A DNA stretch of 25,865 nucleotides from a virus (IMGVR_UViG_2582580933_000011:1-25865); one strand, 5' to 3'. Positions 3,712 through 25,865 are shown, numbered from the stretch's first letter. Translations and numbers: made by a program. Notes: generated by a model from the sequence alone, not told the origin.

Positions 3712-3764
3712 AGTTACGGCCTCACAATCAGGTTTAACAACCTGCTACCCGCTGTCAAACAGGT

Positions 3765-3860
3765 GGCAGGACGTGACAGGGTTGACAGACTGGCGATTGT
3801 GAAACCAGCAGGCCGAAGCCTCCCCATCACGCCCCACCATAATTTGGGCGTAACGCGGTT
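3765..3860 (-). ncRNA. candidate c4-like antisense repressor RNA (approximate bounds)
   Basis: The central element 3781-3802 (plus gttgacagactggcgattgtga) is the inverted complement of motifs at 3722-3760 (CACAATCA ... CTGTCAAAC, overlapping the icd SD) and 3907-3929 (CACAATCA ... CTGTCAAAC). This is the a1/b1 - a'/b' - a2/b2 layout described for P1/P7 c4. Ends of the RNA cannot be fixed from sequence alone. Confidence 0.4.
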
Positions 3861-4025
3861 TAACGGACACAAAAATACCGCAATATCGGAAATCTGCGGT
3901 TGTCCGCACAATCATTCAGGCTGTCAAACCTGGTCGCAGAATTTGCTACGACGGCGGAACTATAAGCCTGAACGATTAAAAGGTCAATATGATGCGAAAA
4001 GATAGCATTCGTGACTTAAAAATAC

Positions 4026-4042
4026 AAATTTATTAGAGCATT
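4026..4042 (-). promoter_or_regulatory. C1-repressor operator-like 17-mer (Op51-like) upstream of the immI transcription unit
   Basis: Minus strand reads AATGCTCTAATAAATTT, 16/17 to the consensus ATTGCTCTAATAAATTT. The flanking sequence is also shared with the kilA site (plus 2343-2369 versus 4012-4040: ACTTA.AAAA..AAATTTATTAGAGCA). Confidence 0.6.
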
Positions 4043-4138
4043 GTTTGTTTAATAAATGCACAATTGGATCTAATAACCTCTTTTTTTTAAAGGCGAAAAT
4101 ATGTACCCTAAATGAGTTATAAGGCAGGTGAGGTTATA

Positions 4139-4630
4139 ATGAGAAAACTATTACTACCGTTATTATTTATGGCTGGGACTGTTAATGCAGCATCAAGCGT
4201 AAAGGAGATTTGTACCGATTATACGAAATACCTTGGGCACGTTTACGGATTTGCTGTCAGTGAAGACGAATCCATGCGCAAGAAGTTACTGTCAGATATG
4301 AAGCGCCTTAAACTTTCTGAAGCGATGGTGCAGCAGGAACTGTATAAAGTCTCAACCAACGCAAATGCTAAATACCAATATTCTCGCCTATTAAACCCCG
4401 ATGCAAATGAGATCAATCGAAGCACTTTCGATTATATGGTAAAGGCATGCGAAACCGCTCCTGATTTTGCTATCCCTAGCTGGGGTGTGCTGGTGGCGAG
4501 CAATGCCGTTAATAAAGAAGATGTTGGAAGAAATGGCATTGACTCAATCAGAAATGCCCCAGGAATGCGCCATCAAAACGTGCAGGGTACGCTTGAAGAA
4601 CGAGCCAGGGGGCCGGGTGTAGCTCCATAA
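4139..4630 (+). CDS. secreted (signal-peptide) protein with a C-terminal motif shared with the Sit protein
   Basis: ORF track 4112..4630. The likely start at ATG 4139 has GGTGAGG upstream and gives MRKLLLPLLFMAGTVNA|ASS, a signal peptide with an AxA-type cleavage site and no lipobox Cys. C-terminus NGIDSIRNAPGMRHQNVQGTLEERARGPG matches Sit segments. The body of the gene is AT-rich, the 3' end GC-richer. Confidence 0.6.
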   Translation: MRKLLLPLLFMAGTVNAASSVKEICTDYTKYLGHVYGFAVSEDESMRKKLLSDMKRLKLSEAMVQQELYKVSTNANAKYQYSRLLNPDANEINRSTFDYMVKACETAPDFAIPSWGVLVASNAVNKEDVGRNGIDSIRNAPGMRHQNVQGTLEERARGPGVAP

Positions 4631-4718
4631 TTTAATGAATAATATTAAATTCTCTGGGCATAGTGGATCTAACAATATGGACTATGCCTATAATATCTAA
4701 AACAAAAAGGATAAAAAT

Positions 4719-5225
4719 ATGAAATTATATAAGTCATTGTATAGCTTTTTATTAATGTCCTCTTTTCTGCCATTATCAGCAATGGCAGGTTCTACCGTTT
4801 GGACGGTAGGAGGTGAGCAAGGGTGGAGAGAAATCTCTGCAACCAATGACGATGGTTATACAATTAACTTTTCTTGTGATGCTGGAGCAAGGGAAGGTTC
4901 AGAAGATCATATCGCTGGAAGAAATTTGTATGTAAGCGGAGGAAAAGAGAATGCCGATTTTTCTACACGCGACACAATATCACGTAAAGCAGATGTAATT
5001 ACTTTAATTGTTGGCCCGGATAGTTTTAATATTGGCACGCAAAACACTGCTCCTAATCGTAGGGAATGGTATTCATTTTGGAAGGCAGTGTCATCTACAA
5101 ATGAAAAAAACATAGATGTATATATCGGTTCGAGTCGAATCACATCATTCACTCTGGATGGTATTTCCAGTATTTATACAGAAGCTAAAAATGACGGGTG
5201 TTTAAAACAAGATGACGGTGAATAA
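4719..5225 (+). CDS. secreted/periplasmic protein, unknown function
   Basis: 168 aa. N-terminal signal peptide MKLYKSLYSFLLMSSFLPLSAMA|GST, two Cys in the mature part. AT-rich. Its end overlaps the start of the next gene by 14 nt. Confidence 0.6.
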   Translation: MKLYKSLYSFLLMSSFLPLSAMAGSTVWTVGGEQGWREISATNDDGYTINFSCDAGAREGSEDHIAGRNLYVSGGKENADFSTRDTISRKADVITLIVGPDSFNIGTQNTAPNRREWYSFWKAVSSTNEKNIDVYIGSSRITSFTLDGISSIYTEAKNDGCLKQDDGE

Positions 5226-6285
5226 AGTGAAGGATATTAAACACATTTCGCTTAACTCTAATAATAAAGCTGAAGGCACTGTCTTTTATGATTATTTAAA
5301 TGAAATTAAAGGAGTGAGGCATAAAAAGATAAGTGGTTTATTAAATTCAGAATATATTTACAAGAGTTTAGTTAAACAGTTTGGAACAGTTAAAAAACAA
5401 GAATTAATTAATGATTGTTTTCGAAAAGAACTTGAGTCTTTACCAAAAGTTACGAGAATTGCACACCAGTTTCGTGAACAAATGGTATTTTTACAGAAAC
5501 AGTATCAGGCGGCTTTTCCCAGTGATGCAAATGAGCATATTCAAATAATTAAAAATCAAGCTGAAATGGCTATGCCGTTACGAAAACACTCAGAAGCCAT
5601 TAATAAGATAGCTGGCTTAAATAATATGGAGGAGGTATTTAAAGAATTACACTCTAATATAAATTACAAAATTAAGATAAGCAAAGATATTAAAGAAATA
5701 ATAAAGCAGTATAATAAAACAAGAAGTGTATTATTAGAGCAAGTAGTAGAGCTTGGGCTTGTTACTATCGCGCAGGCTTATGCTAATGATTCTATAAAAT
5801 CAGCGCATACCGAAAGTGAGCATCAAAACAAAGGATTTAATAAATCTAGTTCGACGTTTTTTGATTCATTTAAGGCGCTTCCTTCTCCTATTCAGATCTT
5901 CCTTCTGTGGATTTTTTATCAAGTGGTGCTTGGCGCTATAACTGATTATGCAAAAGAAAAGACATTATCGCAAATTTACAAGATGGAATCATATCTTCTA
6001 TCTCTAAATGAGGATAAGCCAATATCTAAGCAAAAGCTAACACAAGAAAATAAAGATATTCAGTGGGAGGATCTTAATAATTTTAGAGCTATAACAGGTG
6101 ATAACGTAAGGTTGCATGTCGGCCCTTCTTTAAATAGTGAAGTGATTGAATGCATTGGCAAAAACACAATTGTTGCTATTTTAGATAAGAAAGATCGTCA
6201 ATGGCTTTACGTGCAGGTTAAATCAGGGGATGAGTTTATTACTGGTTGGATTACACGAACATACACAAAGCCTCTTAAGGCTTGA
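5212..6285 (+). CDS. Lys/Asn-rich protein with one predicted TM segment and a C-terminal SH3b-like domain
   Basis: 357 aa. Hydrophobic segment PIQIFLLWIFYQVVLGAIT. C-terminal approx 60 aa (VRLHVGPSLNSEVIECIGKNTIVAILDKKDRQWLYVQVKSGDEFITGWITRTY) has the bacterial SH3 pattern. Very AT-rich, strong compositional contrast with neighbours. Confidence 0.55.
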   Translation: MTVNKVKDIKHISLNSNNKAEGTVFYDYLNEIKGVRHKKISGLLNSEYIYKSLVKQFGTVKKQELINDCFRKELESLPKVTRIAHQFREQMVFLQKQYQAAFPSDANEHIQIIKNQAEMAMPLRKHSEAINKIAGLNNMEEVFKELHSNINYKIKISKDIKEIIKQYNKTRSVLLEQVVELGLVTIAQAYANDSIKSAHTESEHQNKGFNKSSSTFFDSFKALPSPIQIFLLWIFYQVVLGAITDYAKEKTLSQIYKMESYLLSLNEDKPISKQKLTQENKDIQWEDLNNFRAITGDNVRLHVGPSLNSEVIECIGKNTIVAILDKKDRQWLYVQVKSGDEFITGWITRTYTKPLKA

Positions 6286-6415
6286 ATTTTATCTCCGCAT
6301 CTTCGGATTGGGTGTTGATGACGATGTGCTACTTGAAGCACTTGAGTTGTTTTAACGTAGTATCTGAAATGTGTAGACTGACCGGTAACAAATGACAACT
6401 CGTAGAATCGGTTAA

Positions 6416-15126: not shown

Positions 15127-17583
15127 ATGAATGACGTTACAGTTGTTACATCAGTTACTTACCCATCACCCGAGTCGTTGGCTCTGGTGGCTGATGTGCA
15201 ATACCACGAACCATATCTGTCAGCCGCGCTAAACCGAAAATTCAGGGGGATTGTTGACCCGGGATTTTATGCCGGTTTCTTACCTAAGCCTGGCGGTGGG
15301 ATGAACCTGTTAATCACCTCTGTGGATGGTGATAAAACTGCTGGCGCAGCGTCAGTGGATATTGGTGAATTCTACCAGGTAACTATTCAGCATCGTAAGG
15401 ATATTTCTCTTGCACTTAGCGCCGGTAAGAAATATGCAATTGTGCTGAAGGGAAGATACCTCCTTGGAGAGGATACCTATCAGGTTAATACCGCGTCACA
15501 TATTCATGCGGCTGAATTTGTTACCAGAACCTATACCGATTCATATCAGTTAGGAGATGGGGAGCTGCTTGTTTGTACGGTGAATATCCCTGCTGGCGTA
15601 TCAGCCATTACCCAGGAGATGATTGATACATCCGAGCGTATTAACCGCACGATCGGCATTGATATTTCAGACTCTGTAACCAGTAGCAGAAGTGATGTTG
15701 CTGCAAGTTCGCTGGCAGTTAAAAAAGCCTACGATCTGGCGAAAAGCAAGTATACGGCGCAGGATGCAAGCACAACGCAAAAGGGATTAGTTCAGCTCAG
15801 TAGCGAAACTAACAGCGATAGCGAAACAATGGCGGCTACCCCTAAAGCCGTTAAGTCTGTAAAAGATCTTGCTGATACCAAAGCGCCAATAGAAAGCCCG
15901 AGTCTGACAGGAACGCCAACCGCGCCGACGGCGGCGCAAGGTACAAACAGCACACAGATCGCAAATACAGCCTTTGTTAAGGCAGCTATAACTGCACTTA
16001 TCAACGGTGCACCTGGCACACTGGATACACTTAAAGAAATAGCTGCTGCGATCAATAACGACCCGAATTTCAGCACAACTATCAACAATGCTCTGGCCCT
16101 TAAAGCGCCTTTAGCAAGTCCTGCATTAACGGGAATACCTACTGCGCCTACCGCTGCACAGGGTACGAATAACACGCAGATTGCTACGACCGCTTATGTA
16201 AGAGCTGCCATATCCGCATTGGTTGGTTCATCACCAGAAGCTCTTGATACCCTGAATGAGCTTGCCGCAGCACTTGGCAATGACCCGAACTTTGCGACAA
16301 CAATGACAAATGCGCTGGCAGGTAAACAGCCTCTGGATGCAACTTTAACCGCTCTCGCTGCCCTTGCGACTGGTGCAAACAAACTGCCTTATTTCACTGG
16401 TAAGGATACGGTAGCTCAGACTGATTTAACGTCAGTCGGTCGCGATATTCTGGCTAAAACAAGCACACTGGCCGTTATCCAATACCTTGGTTTAAGAGAA
16501 CTCGGAACAAGCGGTGAAAAGATCCCCCTGTTGAGCACGGCTAACACATGGAGTGCACGCCAGACTTTCAACGGCGGGATCACCGGGGCGCTGACAGGGA
16601 ACGCCGATACCGCGACGAAATTGAAAACAGCCAGAAACATTAATGGCGTCAGGTTCGATGGTTCTACGAACATTTCGATACCAACAATTACGTCTAGAGG
16701 ACGCGTTACTGCGCTTACCGGTACAACGCAAGGTGCTGCTACTGGATTGCAGATGTATGAGGCATACAACAATGGCTACCCAACAGCTTATGGTAATGTG
16801 CTTCATCTCACTGGTGCAGCCGCAGTAGGAGAGGGTGAATTACTTATTGGCTGGAGTGGAACCAGCGGCGCTCATGCTCCTGCGTATATTCGTTCGCGGC
16901 GGGATACGACCGACGCAAACTGGTCGCCGTGGGCGCAGCTTTACACGTCGGCCCATCCTCCGGCAGAGTTTTATCCAGTCGGCGCCCCAATCCCGTGGCC
17001 TTCTGATGTAGTACCTACAGGTTATGCTATTATGCAGGGGCAAACTTTTGATAAGTCTGCATACCCAAAACTTGCAGTAGCGTATCCATCTGGTGTGATC
17101 CCTGATATGCGTGGCTGGACAATCAAGGGCAAACCCGCCAGTGGTCGTGCTGTATTGTCTCAGGAACAGGACGGTATTAAATCGCACACCCACAGCGCAA
17201 GTGCATCAAGTACTGATTTGGGAACGAAAACAACCAGTTCGTTTGATTACGGGACAAAAACAGTCAGCACGTTTAACCACGGCACAAAAACAACAAACAA
17301 TACAGGAGCGCATACGCACACTGTCGGTGGTCGCTATGGTGGTGACTCCATCGGGAGTAAACAACGCGTACAGGTATCAGGAACCAACCAGGTGTCAAGC
17401 TCTGCCGGAGCACATGCCCATACTGTCGATATTGGTCAGCATAACCACACCGTAGGTATTGGTGCCCATGCACACACTTTGGCATTGGGTGCGCACGGAC
17501 ATACCATCACGGTTAACGCTACTGGTAATGCGGAAAACACCGTAAAAAACATTGCATATAACTATATTGTGAGACTTGCATGA
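15127..17583 (+). CDS. tail fibre protein (S-like), 818 aa
   Basis: Start chosen at ATG 15127 (AAGGA 8 nt upstream; the 15040 start would overlap the R-like gene). Two tandem phage-fibre repeats ([28 protein letters not shown]... and [28 protein letters not shown]...). C-terminal His-box repeats [33 protein letters not shown]. Confidence 0.85.
15895..16330 (+). repeat. intragenic tandem repeat (two approx 65-codon phage tail-fibre repeat units) within the fibre gene
   Basis: Protein-level repeat. The two DNA copies are diverged, so this is an ancient structural repeat, not a recent duplication. Confidence 0.6.
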
Positions 17584-18449
17584 TTAATTTAATTCTTTCA
17601 GCACCAGTACCTGAAATGGCTGAGGCATTTAAGCGGGTATTTGCAAATGCAGATAATGTGAATATTGTCGGTCAACCATTTGAAACAATCAGAGAATTTG
17701 ACTGCATGGTCAGTGCGGCAAACAGTTTCGGGCTAATGGATGGCGGCGTTGACGCTGCCATTACTGCATTCTTTGGTACTCAGTTACAGACACGTGTTCA
17801 GAATCATATTCTTCGTGAATATCTTGGTGAGCAGCCTGTAGGCACTGCATTTGTTATTGAAACGGGGGATAACAACCATCCCTGGCTGGTACATGCGCCA
17901 ACAATGCGCGTTCCGCTGACCATTGACGGAACAGACGCTGTATATAACGCCACGTGGGCCGCTCTGCTTGCCATCTTTCAGCACAATAAAAATGCAACGA
18001 CAGACAGGAAAATAAAAACGGTGGTATTACCTGCAATGGGGGCCGGATGTGGTCAGGTGCCGTTTGAAAGTGTTACCCGGCAGATGAAGCTGGCATGGGA
18101 TAATTTTAATAAAAAAACAGAATCAATTAACTGGGAATATGCATATTCCCGCCAGTGGGCGGTATTTAACACATGTGCATACTGCCCCGGTAAATCTGGT
18201 TGTCGTTATGCTGATATTAAATATATTGGATGTGGCGATTACCGTACGTATTGCTTACGGTCAGGGCAGGTATGTATTAACCCTGAACATCAGGTTGATG
18301 ACGTGCTGACTAATAATCGCTCTCGCCCGGGAGCACATATACACCAGATTAATCCGGTAAAACCCGTAGGTAACGTTACCATTGGCGCACACAGCCACGG
18401 AAGGAATATCACCATTGGTGCTCATTCCCATACAACCAATAAACAATAA
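17580..18449 (+). CDS. macro-domain protein with Cys-rich linker and C-terminal tail-fibre-tip-like His-box repeats
   Basis: 289 aa. Start overlaps the fibre stop (ATGA at 17580-17583). Macro-domain motifs: [67 protein letters not shown] (compare E. coli YmdB VDVIVNAAN..GGGGVDGAIHRAAG, HTVGP, VAFPAISTGVYG). C-terminus [24 protein letters not shown] resembles the fibre tip. Confidence 0.8.
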
Positions 18450-18473
18450 TTCTGTCTCTGACATTAAGTAGAG

Positions 18474-19058
18474 GTGAACATGACTTTCAGAATGAGTGCT
18501 GAAGCACAAACCATTCGCGTATTTAATTATCTCGATGGTTCAAATGAATTTATTGGAGAAAGTGATGCCTATATTCCACCACATACAGGGCTTCCGGCAA
18601 ACAGCACAGATATTGCTCCTCCTGAGATTCCAGCTGGTTTTGCCGCTATATTCGACACAACCAGAAACTTATGGAATTTAATAGAGGACCATAGAGGAAA
18701 AACTGTTTATCACACTGAAACAGGTGACGCCAAAACTATATCTAAATTAGGCGCTTTGCCTGAGGATGTTACGTGCATTCCCCCTGATGATGAGTATCAG
18801 AAGTGGAGTGGAAATCAATGGGTTACGGACGATGAAGCGAAGCGTCAAGCACAGATAAGCTATGCAAACTCAAAGAAAGATGAGTTGTTAAAATACGCAA
18901 GCGTAAAGATAGCGATCTTACAAGATGCTGTTGATTTATGTATTGCAACAGATGAAGAGAAAGTTTTATTAAATGAATGGAAAAAATACAGAGTTCTTGT
19001 AAATAGGTTAAATGAAGATGATATCATTCAAATGAAAGTCCCTGAAACACCAGTTTGA
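18474..19058 (+). CDS. tail fibre assembly chaperone (Tfa/U-like)
   Basis: 194 aa. GAGGTGA RBS. N-terminal region typical of Tfa proteins (RVFNYLDGSNEFIGESDAYIPPHTGLPANSTDIAPPEIPAGF...). Last gene of the fibre unit. Confidence 0.8.
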   Translation: MNMTFRMSAEAQTIRVFNYLDGSNEFIGESDAYIPPHTGLPANSTDIAPPEIPAGFAAIFDTTRNLWNLIEDHRGKTVYHTETGDAKTISKLGALPEDVTCIPPDDEYQKWSGNQWVTDDEAKRQAQISYANSKKDELLKYASVKIAILQDAVDLCIATDEEKVLLNEWKKYRVLVNRLNEDDIIQMKVPETPV

Positions 19059-19069
19059 TTTATATTAAT

Positions 19070-19104
19070 AAGCCACTGTTGACAGGACTGTTTTACAGTG
19101 GCTT
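19070..19104. terminator. bidirectional intrinsic terminator between convergent tail-fibre operon and glycosyltransferase gene
   Basis: Perfect 10-bp stem AAGCCACTGT / ACAGTGGCTT with a 15-nt loop, followed by GTTTTATTAT on the plus strand and an AT-rich tract on the minus strand. Confidence 0.55.
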
Positions 19105-19110
19105 GTTTTA

Positions 19111-20259
19111 TTATCTAAACCAATTTTCTAGAACATTTTCAAATTTATGGGTAACTTGCCACCATAAATAGTTCTCTAATACATATTTTTTTCCGTTATT
19201 TGCAATTTGTTCTAATTTTTCGGAATGTAATGTTTCATATATATCACTAGCTAAACTTTCTGGCAACATTGGTTCATTTATATGAAATCCTGTATGGTTA
19301 TTTTTTACAAATTCAACCATTCCACCTCGAGTGCTAACTAAAACGGGTCTTCCTGCCCCCATAGCTTCTATAGCAACCATGCAGAACGGTTCTTGAAACT
19401 GAGATGGGATTACAACTAGATCGGCTATAGGATAGTAACGGTACATATCATCTGGTTTTACCCCGCCAACAAGATGACAGCGCGAACCAATAGTTCCAGC
19501 AAGTTCCCTTACTTGTTTTTGATATGCAGCTTTTTCTCCTTTATCTTTATTATTGTAGTCACCAACAACTACAAGTTCTATATTGTCACATGATTTTATC
19601 AATTTTTTAAACGCTTGTAATAGTAAAACAGTCCCTTTTTCAGGGGAGATCCTTCCCGCATAAAAGATAACTTTTTTCTCAGAGGGAATACCTAAATCTT
19701 GTTTTGTTAGCGGGGGTAGTTCTTTATCTAGATTGTGTAGTTCTGTACCATTAGGAACTATACAAATTTCAGCGTCAGGAAGATGTTTTTCATAAAAATC
19801 CTTTAAATACTGACTTGGAACAAGCATTTTCACATTGCTATCTAGCCCTTTCGGTGTAAAGGCATTATGCATATGCATTATCATTTTTGCGTCAGGAGCT
19901 TTCTCTCTAATTTGACGATAAAGTTTCATGCTGTTATGAACAATAATAATGCTATCGTTTGTGATATTGAAATCTTTAGCAATGTTTAACACTCTTTGTG
20001 AATATGGAATAGGATCTATTCTGCTCCATTTTTGAAATATCCGTTTATAAAGACGGCTAAACCCTATTCTATGGATAGAACATCGCTCATTAACAATATC
20101 TTTTTCTGAGAAACCATCCTCTCGAATGCATGCTATACGATTTGGTATTCTTGTTCTCTTTGCGACTTGATATATCCAAGTTTCAACAGCTGCTGCGCCA
20201 CGAGGTGGTATTGAAAATATTGGTGTAACTGTAAATATTAATTTGTCAATCATGAGCAA
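19111..20259 (-). CDS. glycosyltransferase, GT-B fold (GT4/RfaG-like family)
   Basis: 382 aa. C-terminal GT4 signature (VVVGDYNNK ... FCMVAIEAMGAGRPVLVSTRGGMVEFV). Very AT-rich. Start overlaps the acetyltransferase gene by 14 nt. Confidence 0.8.
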   Translation of the reverse strand: MLMIDKLIFTVTPIFSIPPRGAAAVETWIYQVAKRTRIPNRIACIREDGFSEKDIVNERCSIHRIGFSRLYKRIFQKWSRIDPIPYSQRVLNIAKDFNITNDSIIIVHNSMKLYRQIREKAPDAKMIMHMHNAFTPKGLDSNVKMLVPSQYLKDFYEKHLPDAEICIVPNGTELHNLDKELPPLTKQDLGIPSEKKVIFYAGRISPEKGTVLLLQAFKKLIKSCDNIELVVVGDYNNKDKGEKAAYQKQVRELAGTIGSRCHLVGGVKPDDMYRYYPIADLVVIPSQFQEPFCMVAIEAMGAGRPVLVSTRGGMVEFVKNNHTGFHINEPMLPESLASDIYETLHSEKLEQIANNGKKYVLENYLWWQVTHKFENVLENWFR

Positions 20260-20797
20260 CTATCCTCTTATAATCTTTTCCCTTTAAATATTTTTTTAGG
20301 GTTGCAGGAGAGCCTGCATACATTGTATTAGCAGGAACATCAGTATTTACAACGCTATTTGCAGCTATAACACTATTGTCTCCTATTTTTACACCTGGTA
20401 GCACAGTTGTATTTGCCCCAATCCAAACATTACGGCCTATTTTTATTGGAGCGCAAATTGTTTCTTTGGGACGTTTGCTTGGTGTTAGTGGATGCGTGAC
20501 AGTTGTTAATACAACGTTGGGACCAATGGCAGAGTTACATCCAATATCTATTGTTTTTGCATCGAGAAAAACACAATTTGCGTTAATGAAGACATTTTTA
20601 TCAATAATTATATTGCCATTCTCAAAATAAAATGGAGCTGTTATTGTTGAGTCTTCACTTACTTTAACTCCTGTTTTTTTTAATGTGATTAATTTTTTTC
20701 TTTTTGAGATTAGGGTATAATTAAATATATGTCTTGCTTTCTTTGCTTTCTTTTTTTGAAAAATTATATAGAAATAATATGTTAACAAATCAAACAT
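20246..20797 (-). CDS. hexapeptide-repeat (left-handed beta-helix) sugar O-acetyltransferase-like protein
   Basis: 183 aa with tandem hexapeptide repeats (VFINANCVFLDAKTIDIGCNSAIGPNVVL ... VWIGANTTVLPGVKIGDNSVIAANSVV) as in maltose/galactoside/WcaB-type acetyltransferases. AT-rich. The true start may be internal. Confidence 0.75.
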   Translation of the reverse strand: MFDLLTYYFYIIFQKKKAKKARHIFNYTLISKRKKLITLKKTGVKVSEDSTITAPFYFENGNIIIDKNVFINANCVFLDAKTIDIGCNSAIGPNVVLTTVTHPLTPSKRPKETICAPIKIGRNVWIGANTTVLPGVKIGDNSVIAANSVVNTDVPANTMYAGSPATLKKYLKGKDYKRIVAHD

Positions 20798-20821
20798 TGT
20801 TGTTTTACTTCCATTTAAAAT

Positions 20822-21151
20822 TTAACTATCAAATGTGGCGCCTATTTCTCGCATTTTGTTAAGTATGGTGTTTATTTCATTGCTACCGAGAGAAGTTTGG
20901 GCAGCCATGAAAAAAAGTATGTGCAATGACATAGATCTGTTATTTTCTTTGTTTATATATTTTCTCCACTGGCTATCGCTGCTGATCCCGGCTAGTTCTG
21001 CCATTTGATTCCCTGTATACCCAAGCATTTCTTTGAATTGATGCAAATCTTGTGATTTGGGGGGGGTGTAGTTGTTTATTAACCTCATATTAAACCCATT
21101 ATTGGTAAGCTTTCGTTGGTGGAATGGTAGCACCAATGGAGCTACTGTCAA
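20822..21151 (-). CDS. small hypothetical protein, possible HTH DNA-binding regulator
   Basis: 109-aa ORF upstream of, and co-oriented with, the acetyltransferase and glycosyltransferase genes. Segment TGNQMAELAGISSDSQWRKYI is HTH-like. Start ambiguous (internal Met at residue 22). Confidence 0.4.
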   Translation of the reverse strand: MTVAPLVLPFHQRKLTNNGFNMRLINNYTPPKSQDLHQFKEMLGYTGNQMAELAGISSDSQWRKYINKENNRSMSLHILFFMAAQTSLGSNEINTILNKMREIGATFDS

Positions 21152-21278
21152 GCGTCTTTTCTTTATAAATATAGGGAACCATCAAAATCTGACATCAATT
21201 ATCTATCGAAATATTTTGAATGACTGGTGAGAAGTTACTTTGCATACCATTACCTCCTGACAACGTAGGAGGGAACTT

Positions 21279-21608
21279 GTGCTTGACACACAGGAATTAG
21301 CTCCAGTTGCTATTGCGCTCCTGCTTTCAGTAATTGGTGGGATAGGCACGTTCCTGATGGATGTCCGAGACGGTCGCCAGTCTGGCAATTTGTTGGGATT
21401 GGTTACGGAGATCTTTGTTGCAGTGACAGCTGGCGCGGTGGCGTACCTATTGGGGCAACACGAGGGCTGGGAGTTATCAATTACGTACTTAATGGTAACG
21501 ATAGCCAGCAATAACGGTCATGAGGTGATTTCAGGGATGAAACGAGTGAATATCGATAGCATTCTGAATGTTCTTACAAGTTTGGTGAAAAAGGGAGGTG
21601 GGAAATGA
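21279..21608 (+). CDS. lydA: holin (LydA-like)
   Basis: 109 aa, GTG start with AGGAGGG 5 nt upstream. Two to three TM helices and a charged C-terminal tail (KKGGGK). First gene of an operon containing a DarA-like gene, as in the P1 darA operon (as recalled). Confidence 0.6.
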   Translation: MLDTQELAPVAIALLLSVIGGIGTFLMDVRDGRQSGNLLGLVTEIFVAVTAGAVAYLLGQHEGWELSITYLMVTIASNNGHEVISGMKRVNIDSILNVLTSLVKKGGGK

Positions 21609-24920: not shown

Positions 24921-25865
24921 CATCCTCCACGCCCCGAAGGGCGTGGATTCCTGCTACGTTCAGGCTGTCGCCTGAATCATTTCGGTGGGTTCCTGCTTCA
25001 ACGGGCGGCCTGACTGCACCATCCCTCCACAGGCAAGTACGGCGTGCCCCGCCGCTAAAATGTTACGAGCGCCGTTTACATCGGCGTTCGCTGTATATCC
25101 ACATACCTGGCATCTGAATTTACTTTGTGACAGGCGATTTTCTTTCGCTGTATGACCACAGCACGCGCAACGCTGGCTTGTGTACGCTGGCGGAACAGCA
25201 AGCACCTGACCGCCACGCCAGAGCTGCTTGTACTCAAGCTGGCGGCGCATTTCATACCAGCCCTGATCCAGTATCGAACGGTTTAAACCTGATTTTGCCC
25301 GGACATTGCGACCCGGATGACTTATCGTTCCCGCCGCTGACTTTGACATGTATTTAACCTTCAAATCCTCAATGACAATCATTGCGTGGTTTTTGCTGAC
25401 GGTCGTTGTGACTTTGTGAAGGTAGTCCCTGCGGATATTTGCGATACGGGAATGCAGTCGCTGTATTTTGCGTTTCTGCTTCTGCCAGTTGTTGCTGAAT
25501 TTGACCTTGCGGCTTAACTGTCGCTGAAGTCTCGCCAGCTTCTTCTGGTTTTTCTGAAAACTATTTACAGGTTCAAAGACTGTGCCATCTGACAGCGTGG
25601 CGAGTTTAGCCACGCCAGCATCCAGTCCGACCATTGATGCTGAAGGGTGAACAGGAGTGGATACCTCTCTTTCTGTCTGAATACTGATGTACCACTTACC
25701 GCAGGACTGGCTGACAGTAACATTTTTCACAATACCCGTGACCTGACGGCTATTCCGGTAGCGCATCCAGCCAAGTTTCGGCAGAAAAATACGGCTGTTT
25801 TCCTGATCGAGCTTAACACCCTGCGGGTAGCGGAATGCATCATTCTGTCCCCGCTTTTTGAATCG
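24921..25865 (-). mobile_element. IS200/IS605-family insertion sequence, right end plus tnpB (continues beyond the window)
   Basis: TnpB ORF plus a subterminal GC-rich hairpin (CCACGCCC cgaa GGGCGTGG, 24927-24946) directly after the tnpB stop and abutting the stop codon of the upstream phage gene. Confidence 0.75.
24960..25865 (-). CDS. tnpB: TnpB (IS605 OrfB-type RuvC-like nuclease with C-terminal zinc finger); N-terminus lies beyond window end
   Basis: Manual extension of the frame to the window edge gives ...[64 protein letters not shown]..., the conserved central TnpB region. C-terminal CxxC...CxxC ([37 protein letters not shown]). Confidence 0.9.

Follow-up and report, generated by a model that had tools for sequence, protein, structure and literature searches.

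Lysogenic conversion of lipopolysaccharide (LPS) by phages is textbook knowledge for the O-antigen, where it is carried out by membrane-bound Gtr and Oac enzymes. Specifically, the gtrABC and Oac/OafA systems of Sf6, P22-like and SfV-like phages are generally understood to bring about lysogenic conversion and superinfection exclusion. Additionally, WabB, a plasmid-encoded enzyme of pO157 and pWR100, reportedly modifies the LPS core in Escherichia coli O157 and Shigella. Surface-modifying genes such as neaT are also found as morons at 'moron position 2' of P2-like prophages, between genes G and FI (Wiles et al., 2013; PMC3573123). Low-GC, surface-modifying morons located past tail-fibre chaperone genes (neaT, PMC3573123), as well as LPS seroconversion in general, are thus already known. 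Here we describe a three-gene cassette located on the minus strand, at positions 19111-21151, of a 25,865-nucleotide stretch of viral DNA (IMGVR_UViG_2582580933_000011:1-25865; the whole stretch is hereafter referred to as the window). The cassette encodes a small helix-turn-helix (HTH) protein, an acetyltransferase (AT) and a glycosyltransferase (GT), lies beside the tail-fibre genes of a P1-like phage-plasmid, and is probably a self-contained, prophage-expressed lysogenic-conversion operon that alters the LPS outer core of the host.

The glycosyltransferase

Calling of open reading frames (ORFs) on the window confirmed every coordinate given in the preliminary description of the cassette, which consists of three intact, tightly packed and co-oriented minus-strand genes: the GT gene at 19111-20259 (382 amino acids as called), the AT gene at 20246-20797 (183 amino acids) and the HTH gene at 20822-21151 (109 amino acids as called). 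Two of the starts were refined. The GT most likely begins at the ATG at 20253, yielding a protein of 380 amino acids (19111-20253) that matches all homologues and the Prokaryotic Genome Annotation Pipeline (PGAP) annotation, and whose gene shares its first 8 nt with the end of the AT gene. The HTH protein was taken to begin at the ATG at 21088 (20822-21088, 88 amino acids) because every homologue aligns from that methionine.

The GT, described beforehand as a GT-B enzyme of family GT4, matches Pfam Glycos_transf_1 (GT4, GT-B fold; E=2.6e-36), beneath which sits a far weaker 'GT4-conflict' match (45 bits). Profile search allows a more specific placement in the WaaK/WaaD family: NCBIfam NF012028, named 'lipopolysaccharide N-acetylglucosaminyltransferase', scores 658.4 bits, with a curated cut-off of 618, and the match spans model positions 1-379 of 380 (residues 3-381 of the 382-amino-acid ORF). 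Each of the remaining NCBIfam GT4 models reaches at most 100 bits. When 14 sequences, R2 WaaK and R3 WaaD among them, were aligned, the EX7E motif (E288-E296), the catalytic signature of retaining GT4 enzymes, and about 130 further columns proved invariant. Prophage and phage-plasmid copies are 66-92% identical to the window GT, while the E. coli R3 WaaD and R2 WaaK proteins are 61% and 53% identical, respectively.

The genomic contexts of the homologues, together with a tree, divide the family in three. WaaD-type members (60-63% identical to the GT) are found in waa loci, between waaJ and waaL, of E. coli R3/EDL933, Citrobacter, Silvania, Enterobacter and others. WaaK-type members (53-55% identical) are found in waa loci, between waaZ and waaL, of E. 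coli R2, S. enterica diarizonae, E. albertii and E. whittamii. Across R3, R2, Salmonella and other Enterobacterales, the waa-locus members stand directly between the last outer-core glycosyltransferase gene and waaL. The third, mobile clade (66-100% identical) occurs only on phage-plasmids, integrated prophages, prophage remnants and small islets, some of these islets being chromosomal and devoid of any fibre genes. The window GT is encoded outside any waa locus and not beside waaL, the waa-locus copies belonging to the other clades. Its full-length identity of 53-61% to waa-locus enzymes, the N-terminal domain included, suggests that the GT is an LPS outer-core alpha-1,2-hexosyltransferase whose acceptor would be the distal main-chain glucose of lipid A-core.

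The donor is less readily predicted. WaaD is said to be a UDP-Glc:(glucosyl)LPS alpha-1,2-glucosyltransferase, and GT-B enzymes in general bind the nucleotide-sugar donor by their C-terminal domain. Loss of waaD strips the terminal glucose from the R3 core (PMC3972090), and WaaK adds a terminal alpha-1,2-linked N-acetylglucosamine (GlcNAc) that is required for O-antigen ligation (PMC13293308, PMC12048535). At 25 columns that discriminate WaaK from WaaD, the GT is WaaD-like at 15, WaaK-like at eight and neither at two; the eight that fall near the EX7E motif (positions 282-354) are WaaD-like without exception. These columns favour glucose weakly, phylogeny being a confounder, such that glucose is somewhat more likely than GlcNAc to be the donor.

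NCBI gives WaaK and WaaD, that of EDL933 included, one shared 'GlcNAc transferase' name; the label is therefore uninformative as to the donor, and 'GlcNAc transferase' would be an unsafe name for the GT. The R3-core waaD of E. coli O157:H7 EDL933 (L039, 5001-6143), for example, is annotated as 'lipopolysaccharide N-acetylglucosaminyltransferase'; given the glucose loss noted above (PMC3972090), which points to a glucosyltransferase, the family model seems to be misnaming such proteins systematically.

The same name is carried by both the waa-locus Salmonella copy and a WaaK/WaaD-family paralogue (P0029) that is 67% identical to the GT and was seen on at least 1000 Salmonella contigs (Salmonella CP039582, L041 6001-7143; also L032-L035). 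P0029 is encoded not in the waa locus but in a prophage remnant, alongside pagK, an integrase and a macro-chaperone fusion. The Salmonella proteins with 67% identity were considered as the canonical WaaK and rejected, since their genes lie in islets or remnants of prophages; identity to the GT is only 55% for the copy examined in a Salmonella waa locus (L056, subsp. diarizonae). None of the INPHARED phage genomes carries a mobile-clade GT, and a literature search for phage or prophage copies of the WaaK/WaaD family found none. Published prophage waaK/rfaK paralogues were also sought, and the matches obtained were unrelated (gtr-associated genes, point polymorphisms).

The acetyltransferase

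The AT gene (20246-20797, minus strand) encodes a hexapeptide, left-handed beta-helix (LbH) sugar O-acetyltransferase of the LacA/Maa/NodL type. As the preliminary description had it, both enzymes of the cassette are thus sugar-modifying: Pfam Hexapep scores 57.7 bits (E=6.7e-16) and Hexapep_2 48.3 bits on the AT, the cut-off being 27 for both. Residues 17-175 align to the structures of LacA and maltose acetyltransferase with E=1e-28 to 1e-25, and in the LacA alignment (1KQA, E=2.7e-28) the catalytic histidine is aligned (vtHPl / tgHPv). The AT scores below the NCBIfam equivalog cut-offs for both Maa (105.7 vs. 314 bits) and LacA (103.5 vs. 347 bits), and is thus a family-level relative only; sub-threshold NCBIfam matches include WbbJ and WcaF. 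Members of the LacA, Maa and NodL subfamily acetylate the 6-hydroxyl of hexopyranosides, NodL acting on terminal GlcNAc. The closest relatives of the AT (65-68% identity) are found in Salmonella prophages, either paired with a GT (L018) or alone and convergent with the chaperone genes of Mu-like prophages (L015-17).

The HTH protein and its promoter

The leading gene of the cassette (20822-21088, minus strand) encodes a predicted XRE-like HTH protein of 88 amino acids, a conserved leader and putative autoregulator whose homologues, of 86-90 amino acids and 57-67% identity, occur across Enterobacterales. Its AlphaFold2 model (predicted local distance difference test score, 88.4) has five helices, and the top Foldseek matches of this model are all XRE-like (Aca1, Aca10, CapH-N, C.BclI, HigA and SinR). 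A putative, near-consensus sigma-70 promoter, TTGACA-16-TACCAT with a TG, was identified at 21124-21151 on the minus strand (promoter scan 10/12); the element, TTGACAgTAGCTCCATTGGTGCTAccat at 21151-21124, ends 35 nt before the HTH start codon. Within the promoter spacer lies a 17-bp palindrome, TAGCTCCATTGGTGCTA, at 21128-21144, which occurs once in the window, with 0.04 occurrences expected by chance.

A shared form of this element, TTGACA-n3-TAGC(A/C)CCAAWGGGGCTA-TTATTT, was found at 65 of 86 HTH loci and consists of a consensus -35/-10 pair with a 17-nt spacer that is mostly filled by the 17-bp palindrome, the last two bases of which open the -10 hexamer. In most relatives the promoter-palindrome is situated approximately 285 nt upstream of the HTH gene, and in one subgroup with a diverged HTH protein the palindrome is likewise diverged or degenerate. 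From this co-conservation we infer that the HTH protein binds the palindrome and autoregulates its own promoter.

Two additional features of the control region were observed. Firstly, in most relatives (L013 6465-6620; L070 4791-4964; most of L076-L142) the palindromic promoter is separated from the HTH gene by a further gene, which lies about 60-230 nt ahead of the HTH gene and encodes a tail-anchored membrane protein of about 57 amino acids, for example MSTNEMTQAELAKINAEIAKLIAETSKLNRESAWYPIVVATGLIGAVATITTVLLKFI. Past this small gene comes a GC hairpin that carries a T-run, and the window family has neither the gene nor the hairpin. Secondly, a run of eight C residues at 21059-21066 (minus strand) falls within HTH codons 8-10 (T-P-P). 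The run numbers seven in one sister plasmid (that is, another P1-like plasmid of PLSDB with the cassette), seven to eight in a few distant homologues and two to five in most. Phase variation by way of this run was considered and rejected, as the run stems from the T-P-P codons and is not conserved; programmed slippage is unlikely, and the seven-C variant may be a sequencing error.

A replacement block in a P1-like backbone

The element in the window is a P1-like phage-plasmid, in which lydA, lydB, hdf, darA and the genes downstream are 98-99% identical to those of P1. Nucleotide homology to P1 stops at 16949, inside gene S (at approximately residue 637), and resumes at 21219, with 98.2% identity onward, shortly ahead of LPdar, the late promoter, and the holin gene lydA, which by P1 nucleotide comparison and P1 annotation make up the right boundary (21219-21608, plus strand). 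The 4.27-kb block between these boundaries (16950-21218) comprises a foreign fibre tip, a macro-domain protein, a chaperone and the three-gene cassette, and occupies the place of Sv, U, U', Sv', cin and lydC in P1. No cin homologue was found in the window, the invertible C segment (Sv', U') is absent from it, and the sole match to lydC within it is lydA itself (31% identity). This comparison indicates that the cassette arrived within a replacement of the whole C-segment/cin/lydC region, not by insertion, and suggests that the invertible fibre switch of P1 was exchanged for a fixed fibre tip together with a receptor-modifying operon.

Within the block, the cassette is set apart by composition. 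GC content drops to 0.29-0.37 across 18800-21200, compared with approximately 0.46-0.50 on either side (400-nt windows), and amounts to 0.346 for the GT gene, 0.317 for the AT gene and 0.382 for the HTH gene, the whole window having 0.457. The cassette lies between the terminator hairpin of the chaperone gene and the lydA holin operon; the plus-strand genes upstream encode the tail fibre, the macro-domain protein and a Caudo_TAP chaperone, and downstream follow LydA holin, LydB and DarA_N (Pfam). A low-GC, oppositely oriented three-gene moron beside fibre genes, as proposed at the outset, is therefore supported, with a putative regulator and promoter of its own.

The left end of the block is formed by the non-P1 C-terminal tip of tail-fibre protein S (16950-17583, plus strand; from approximately residue 637), which carries GAHxH repeats and is 85-86% identical to its counterparts in pEA32_4-type phage-plasmids and 63% identical to that of Salmonella prophage L018. 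The known receptor of P1 is the terminal core glucose. The preliminary description drew on the recognition of the LPS core by P1-type phages; the fibre, however, is P1-like only to about residue 637, and the P1 receptor therefore cannot simply be assumed for the present phage. Next to the fibre gene lies that of a macro-domain protein of 289 amino acids (17580-18449, plus strand; Pfam Macro, 66.5 bits; phrog_2613 and phrog_14717, 'tail protein'), in which an Nx6GGV-type motif was recognized by eye. At its C-terminus are GAHxH repeats similar to those at the end of the fibre (E=5e-5), and these common repeats are consistent with a virion-associated role of the macro protein. The tail-fibre assembly chaperone (Caudo_TAP, Pfam PF02413, E=5e-31) is encoded at 18474-19058 on the plus strand, convergent with the cassette, and between the two convergent stop codons a GC-rich hairpin is found at 19070-19104 (dG -24.4 kcal/mol, z=-6.3; none of 200 shuffles equally stable). 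With a T-tail on the plus strand only, this hairpin is predicted to be the intrinsic terminator of the fibre operon.

The block, consisting of fibre tip, macro, chaperone and the GT-AT pair, is present in three backbones. The first is the present P1-like element. The second is represented by phage-plasmids with a P2-like tail and an IncFII RepA (E. albertii pEA32_4, L004 and L005), in which the block shows 84% nucleotide identity and the GT 92% protein identity, and in which the HTH gene is missing. The third is the edge of an integrated Salmonella prophage (L018), where identity is 60-66% for each of the five proteins, a sign of prolonged co-inheritance of the block. Taken together, these comparisons show that fibre tip, macro, chaperone and cassette travel as a unit across unrelated phage backbones.

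The preliminary description had also envisaged a 'modify-and-unmodify' pair formed by the macro protein and the AT, and here the comparative data are less favourable. The macro gene precedes the chaperone gene in all five lineages (window, pEA32_4, L012, L018 and L035) in which a mobile-clade GT is directly convergent with the chaperone gene, and two of these, L012 and L035, have no AT. AT-only cassettes (L015-17) are without macro, and macro-fibre modules without GT or cassette occur in Gifsy-1, where the homologue (68%) lies beside the side tail fibre, as well as in SEN4/5 and Chuche. Among the 80 HTH loci surveyed (see below), macro is confined to the window family. The macro protein thus seems to track fibre type and GT rather than the AT, and the proposed pairing of acetylation with deacetylation accordingly lacks specific support. 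Macro-chaperone fusions were seen in L041 (647-1528) and phiRSL1; a search of the macro protein against PDB sequences gave no match at E<=1e-3, and a literature search on macro-domain tail fibres found nothing specific.

As a long shot, the fibre-linked macro protein might be a receptor-editing enzyme (an esterase or PARG-like glycohydrolase) that strips a core group installed by the cassette, with the HTH-palindrome module being a common control unit of receptor-writing cassettes. If so, the cassette would be inherited together with the fibre module as the two halves of an 'erase/write' pair, in which lysogens mask the receptor against competitors and virions of their own lineage can unmask it.

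Two further regions of the window were noted in passing. Further foreign cargo may be present in a second AT-rich stretch at 4700-6300 (plus strand; GC 0.31-0.35), which holds a 168-amino-acid ORF without a Pfam match and one of 357 amino acids with SH3_3 at its C-terminus. At 24960-25766 (minus strand), just after ddrA, lies an IS605 OrfB/TnpB-like ORF (OrfB_IS605 and a Cas12f1-like TNB domain), near the position at which P1 homology in the compared region ends (24916).

A family of HTH-led cassettes beside tail-fibre genes

With the HTH leader as a marker, upwards of 120 viral contigs and some 270 complete E. coli genomes are retrieved; in IMG/VR, 80 of 123 matches were examined. The gene that follows it varies between hosts, being a WaaZ-like Kdo (3-deoxy-D-manno-octulosonic acid) transferase in Citrobacter braakii, an Acyl_transf_3 protein in Serratia marcescens, the GT in Salmonella islets, and an 'acyltransferase family protein' in the two E. 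coli chromosomes inspected among 272 with an unannotated HTH homologue. In every context inspected, the HTH gene stands directly upstream of some envelope-glycan enzyme gene that faces phage tail genes. At the IMG/VR loci the next same-strand gene encodes Acyl_transf_3 (30/80) or a hexapeptide acetyltransferase (10/80), is other or unassigned (18/80), or is lacking (22/80), and the first convergent gene is a tail-fibre chaperone or fibre protein at 46 or more of the 80 (by domain: Caudo_TAP, 18; Gly_rich_2, 16; Peptidase_S74, 6; Gp53-like_C, 6). Carriage beside receptor-binding genes, which had been put forward as a classic arrangement, is therefore recurrent, with at least 46 of 80 HTH loci abutting fibre genes and acetyltransferase cargo at 40 of 80 overall. 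The cassette of the window would accordingly be one member of a widespread, largely unannotated family of surface-sugar-modifying cassettes beside phage tail-fibre genes.

A parallel to the proposed pairing of acetylation with deacetylation is seen elsewhere in this family. In HS-type prophages (E. coli HS, L154 1396-4846; L122, L128 and L129), the HTH-led Acyl_transf_3 cassette adjoins a 664-amino-acid tail gene that is annotated as a sialate O-acetylesterase, and full-length or distant homologues of this gene flank seven Acyl_transf_3 loci; it is a possible virion 'eraser' beside a prophage O-acetyl 'writer'. At L083 (approximately 3753-4610) and L089 (approximately 1591-2445), an HTH-led hexapeptide acetyltransferase is followed by a convergent gene of the HtrL/YibB family. 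Genes of the HtrL/YibB family otherwise neighbour the waa locus of E. coli, which suggests a further LPS-related cargo.

Hosts and gene integrity

The cassette was found in 13 of 472 P1-like plasmids of PLSDB, from E. coli, E. fergusonii and E. albertii, and in nine of 5426 complete E. coli genomes. A chromosomal WaaD/WaaK gene (R3 or R2 core) is present in nine of ten E. coli genomes with a plasmid-borne GT, compared with 34% overall; the former figure was obtained by arithmetic from 1865 chromosomal and 10 plasmid records across 1866 genomes. For one carrier, LR-64-1, an R2 core was confirmed; this strain has a WaaK of its own, and its waaZ is disrupted by IS1. Such a carrier bias fits a phage lineage living on strains whose core ends in a WaaK/WaaD acceptor. 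It also follows that, with WaaK or WaaD already present in carriers, the phage GT must differ in donor or site in order to have an effect. On the LR-64-1 chromosome (L155 19118-20704 and 28959-31329), waaZ and waaH are each split by an insertion sequence (IS; IS1 and IS3), indicating that the LPS core of this strain is already altered.

In sister plasmids, indels (L021-L025) were located at the equivalents of window positions 19186, 19531, 19711/19712, 20014, 20674 and 20733, and a G-run near 19711 was struck twice independently by single-base indels. Some of the single-base indels, being in homopolymer runs, may be sequencing errors. The IS found at the GT 3' end in two sister plasmids is ISKpn26. 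Disruption of the GT gene in sister plasmids could reflect real decay, on/off switching or nanopore homopolymer errors.

Proposed function and the evidence for and against it

Taken together, the data outlined above suggest the following mechanism for an operon that alters the LPS outer core. In the lysogen, the sigma-70 promoter, independent of P1 late control, would drive expression of HTH, AT and GT genes, and an HTH dimer on the palindrome would autoregulate this strong constitutive promoter in the manner of Aca and restriction-modification (R-M) controller proteins, keeping it on but limited. The soluble GT would then act at the cytoplasmic face, adding an alpha-1,2-linked hexose to the distal main-chain core glucose of lipid A-core, and the AT would O-acetylate the added residue or a neighbour, probably at O-6 as do LacA, Maa and NodL. 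Once exported, LPS with a changed core terminus would be recognized differently by core-binding phages, relatives with the same fibre module among them; the change may also alter O-antigen ligation by WaaL.

Several observations weigh against this reading. With respect to the enzymes, the GT would be redundant in hosts with WaaK or WaaD unless its specificity differs. Moreover, the GT gene is frameshifted in 4 of the 13 PLSDB sister plasmids, one of which also has a disrupted AT gene; its 3' end is cut by an IS5-family element in 2 of the 13 (375 of 380 residues aligned, in the one inspected) and is missing from one further E. coli plasmid. With respect to regulation, the HTH protein scores 16.9 bits with Pfam HTH_19, below the cut-off of 30.2, has no NCBIfam match and gives only E>1 in a PDB sequence search; its Foldseek matches have probabilities of 0.9-1.0 (at least 0.97 for Aca1, Aca10, C proteins and HigA, with E about 0.05) but weak E values (0.05-0.5) and template modelling (TM) scores of about 0.5, and its proposed pairing with the palindrome derives from co-conservation. 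Finally, for the cassette transcript, the hairpin past the GT gene has no U-tract.

Four alternatives to the proposed function may be considered. The foremost, which carries appreciable weight and is nonetheless clearly less probable, is that the core is changed but that the selected effect is on O-antigen display or fitness of the host rather than on phage exclusion: an altered residue at the WaaK/WaaD position would change acceptance by WaaL and cause a smooth/rough shift, or serum, type VI secretion or immune effects. In R2 and Salmonella the WaaK GlcNAc branch is needed for ligation, and deletion of waaK resembles deletion of waaL (PMC13293308, PMC12048535); the R2 carrier LR-64-1, which has its own WaaK, would have two enzymes competing for one site; and the neaT moron, at an equivalent position, confers a host fitness phenotype in bacteraemia (PMC3573123). 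The tight and repeated linkage of the cassette to one receptor-binding module is, however, easier to account for under a phage-centred function, and the two effects are not exclusive.

It is unlikely that GT and AT modify some other envelope glycan built on a lipid carrier at the cytoplasmic face (O-unit, enterobacterial common antigen, colanic acid or capsule) instead of lipid A-core. Loci for O-antigen and exopolysaccharide commonly encode GT4 enzymes and LbH acetyltransferases, the sub-threshold matches of the AT to WbbJ and WcaF point the same way, and the cargo of the regulator family is mostly Acyl_transf_3, classically an O-antigen-acetylating type. The GT, however, is 53-61% identical over its full length, N-terminal acceptor domain included, to waa-locus enzymes, exceeds the NF012028 cut-off while no other NCBIfam GT4 model passes 100 bits, and shares its regulator family with a WaaZ-like core enzyme as another cargo.

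Somewhat more doubtful still is the proposal that the cassette is hitch-hiking or decaying cargo, brought along with the fibre-tip module and having little or no function in the present plasmid. About half of the sister plasmids have a GT gene that is frameshifted, IS-truncated or partly missing, and the cassette is rare (13/472 P1-like PLSDB plasmids, 9/5426 E. coli genomes). In the window, however, none of the three ORFs is disrupted, and promoter, EX7E motif and catalytic histidine are likewise intact; the possible sequencing errors in homopolymer runs may account for some of the indels. Furthermore, GT and AT retain 66-92% amino acid identity across backbones, a divergence equal to that of the fibre genes, and this conservation argues for long-term purifying selection.

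Lastly, virion glycosylation by phage glycosyltransferases is known in mycobacteriophages, and action of the enzymes on the phage's own fibre proteins, or some other aid to fibre assembly, would explain adjacency and linkage to the fibre-macro-chaperone module, but it is very improbable given that a sigma-70 promoter drives the cassette against the direction of the late fibre operon, with which it is not co-transcribed, that the GT is closely related over its full length to LPS-core enzymes and has homologues in chromosomal islets without fibre genes, and that related cassettes carry membrane Acyl_transf_3 and WaaZ-like enzymes acting on envelope glycans. A known anti-phage defence system was rejected as a candidate, PADLOC giving no match for the GT, AT, HTH or macro protein.

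If the core terminus is indeed rewritten by the operon proposed here, changed susceptibility to core-binding phages would be relevant to phage therapy and P1 transduction, and O-antigen ligation and core serotyping would be changed in carrier lineages of E. coli, E. albertii, E. fergusonii and Salmonella. The 88-amino-acid HTH protein and its palindromic promoter offer a practical marker for mostly unannotated surface-modifying cassettes beside receptor-binding genes, and would also supply a simple regulatory model. Additionally, a fixed fibre with a receptor-modifying operon in place of cin and the C segment would represent an alternative host-range strategy of phage-plasmids. As far as we found, three aspects appear to be undescribed: the mobile clade of WaaK/WaaD-type core glycosyltransferases on prophages, the control module of HTH protein and palindromic promoter shared by the cassettes, and the substitution of the P1 cin/C-segment region by such a block.

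Comparison with known systems

The control module resembles those of Aca and R-M C proteins in that a small HTH protein, predicted to be XRE-like, is encoded within a short accessory operon and a palindrome lies inside a strong promoter. It differs in having no detectable sequence homology to them and in that the HTH gene comes first in the operon.

Of the enzymes, the GT is closest to chromosomal WaaD and WaaK, sharing the NF012028 family, a length of 380 amino acids and the GT4 EX7E motif, with full-length identities of 61% and 53-55%, respectively; unlike the chromosomal genes, it is paired with an acetyltransferase and a regulator. WabB is comparable as an extrachromosomal LPS outer-core glycosyltransferase that completes or alters the chromosomally encoded waa core, but pO157 and pWR100 provide no phage context. 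A tblastn search of the GT against PLSDB returned no pO157-type plasmid among the matches listed; 15 Escherichia records matched, and the four of these among the matches listed are all P1-like or pEA32-type phage-plasmids. A relationship to the WabB of pO157 was thus not supported by the matches listed, WabB being at most a distant relative.

In common with gtrABC and Oac, the cassette appears to provide prophage-encoded glycosyl and acetyl modification of LPS. Those systems, however, work on the O-antigen in the periplasm by means of membrane proteins (bactoprenol-linked sugar, GtrC, Acyl_transf_3), whereas both window enzymes are of soluble, cytoplasmic types and the relatives of the GT act on lipid A-core before export. 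Pfam and NCBIfam searches detected no GtrA, GtrB, GtrC or Acyl_transf_3 domains in the three cassette proteins.

Most similar in arrangement is neaT, which shares with the cassette a low GC content, a surface-modifying enzyme, an orientation opposite to the flanking tail genes and a position right after the tail-fibre chaperone gene. In related E. coli loci, moreover, an unannotated homologue of the window HTH gene precedes the gene for the 'acyltransferase family protein'. The term 'helix-turn-helix' is absent from the neaT report (PMC3573123), and the HTH/palindrome module was apparently not described there. The two nevertheless differ in both cargo and setting: the window carries a soluble LbH acetyltransferase and a core glycosyltransferase rather than a membrane Acyl_transf_3 protein, and it does so in a P1-like phage-plasmid, within a block that replaces the invertible C segment and not at the G-FI site of P2-like prophages.

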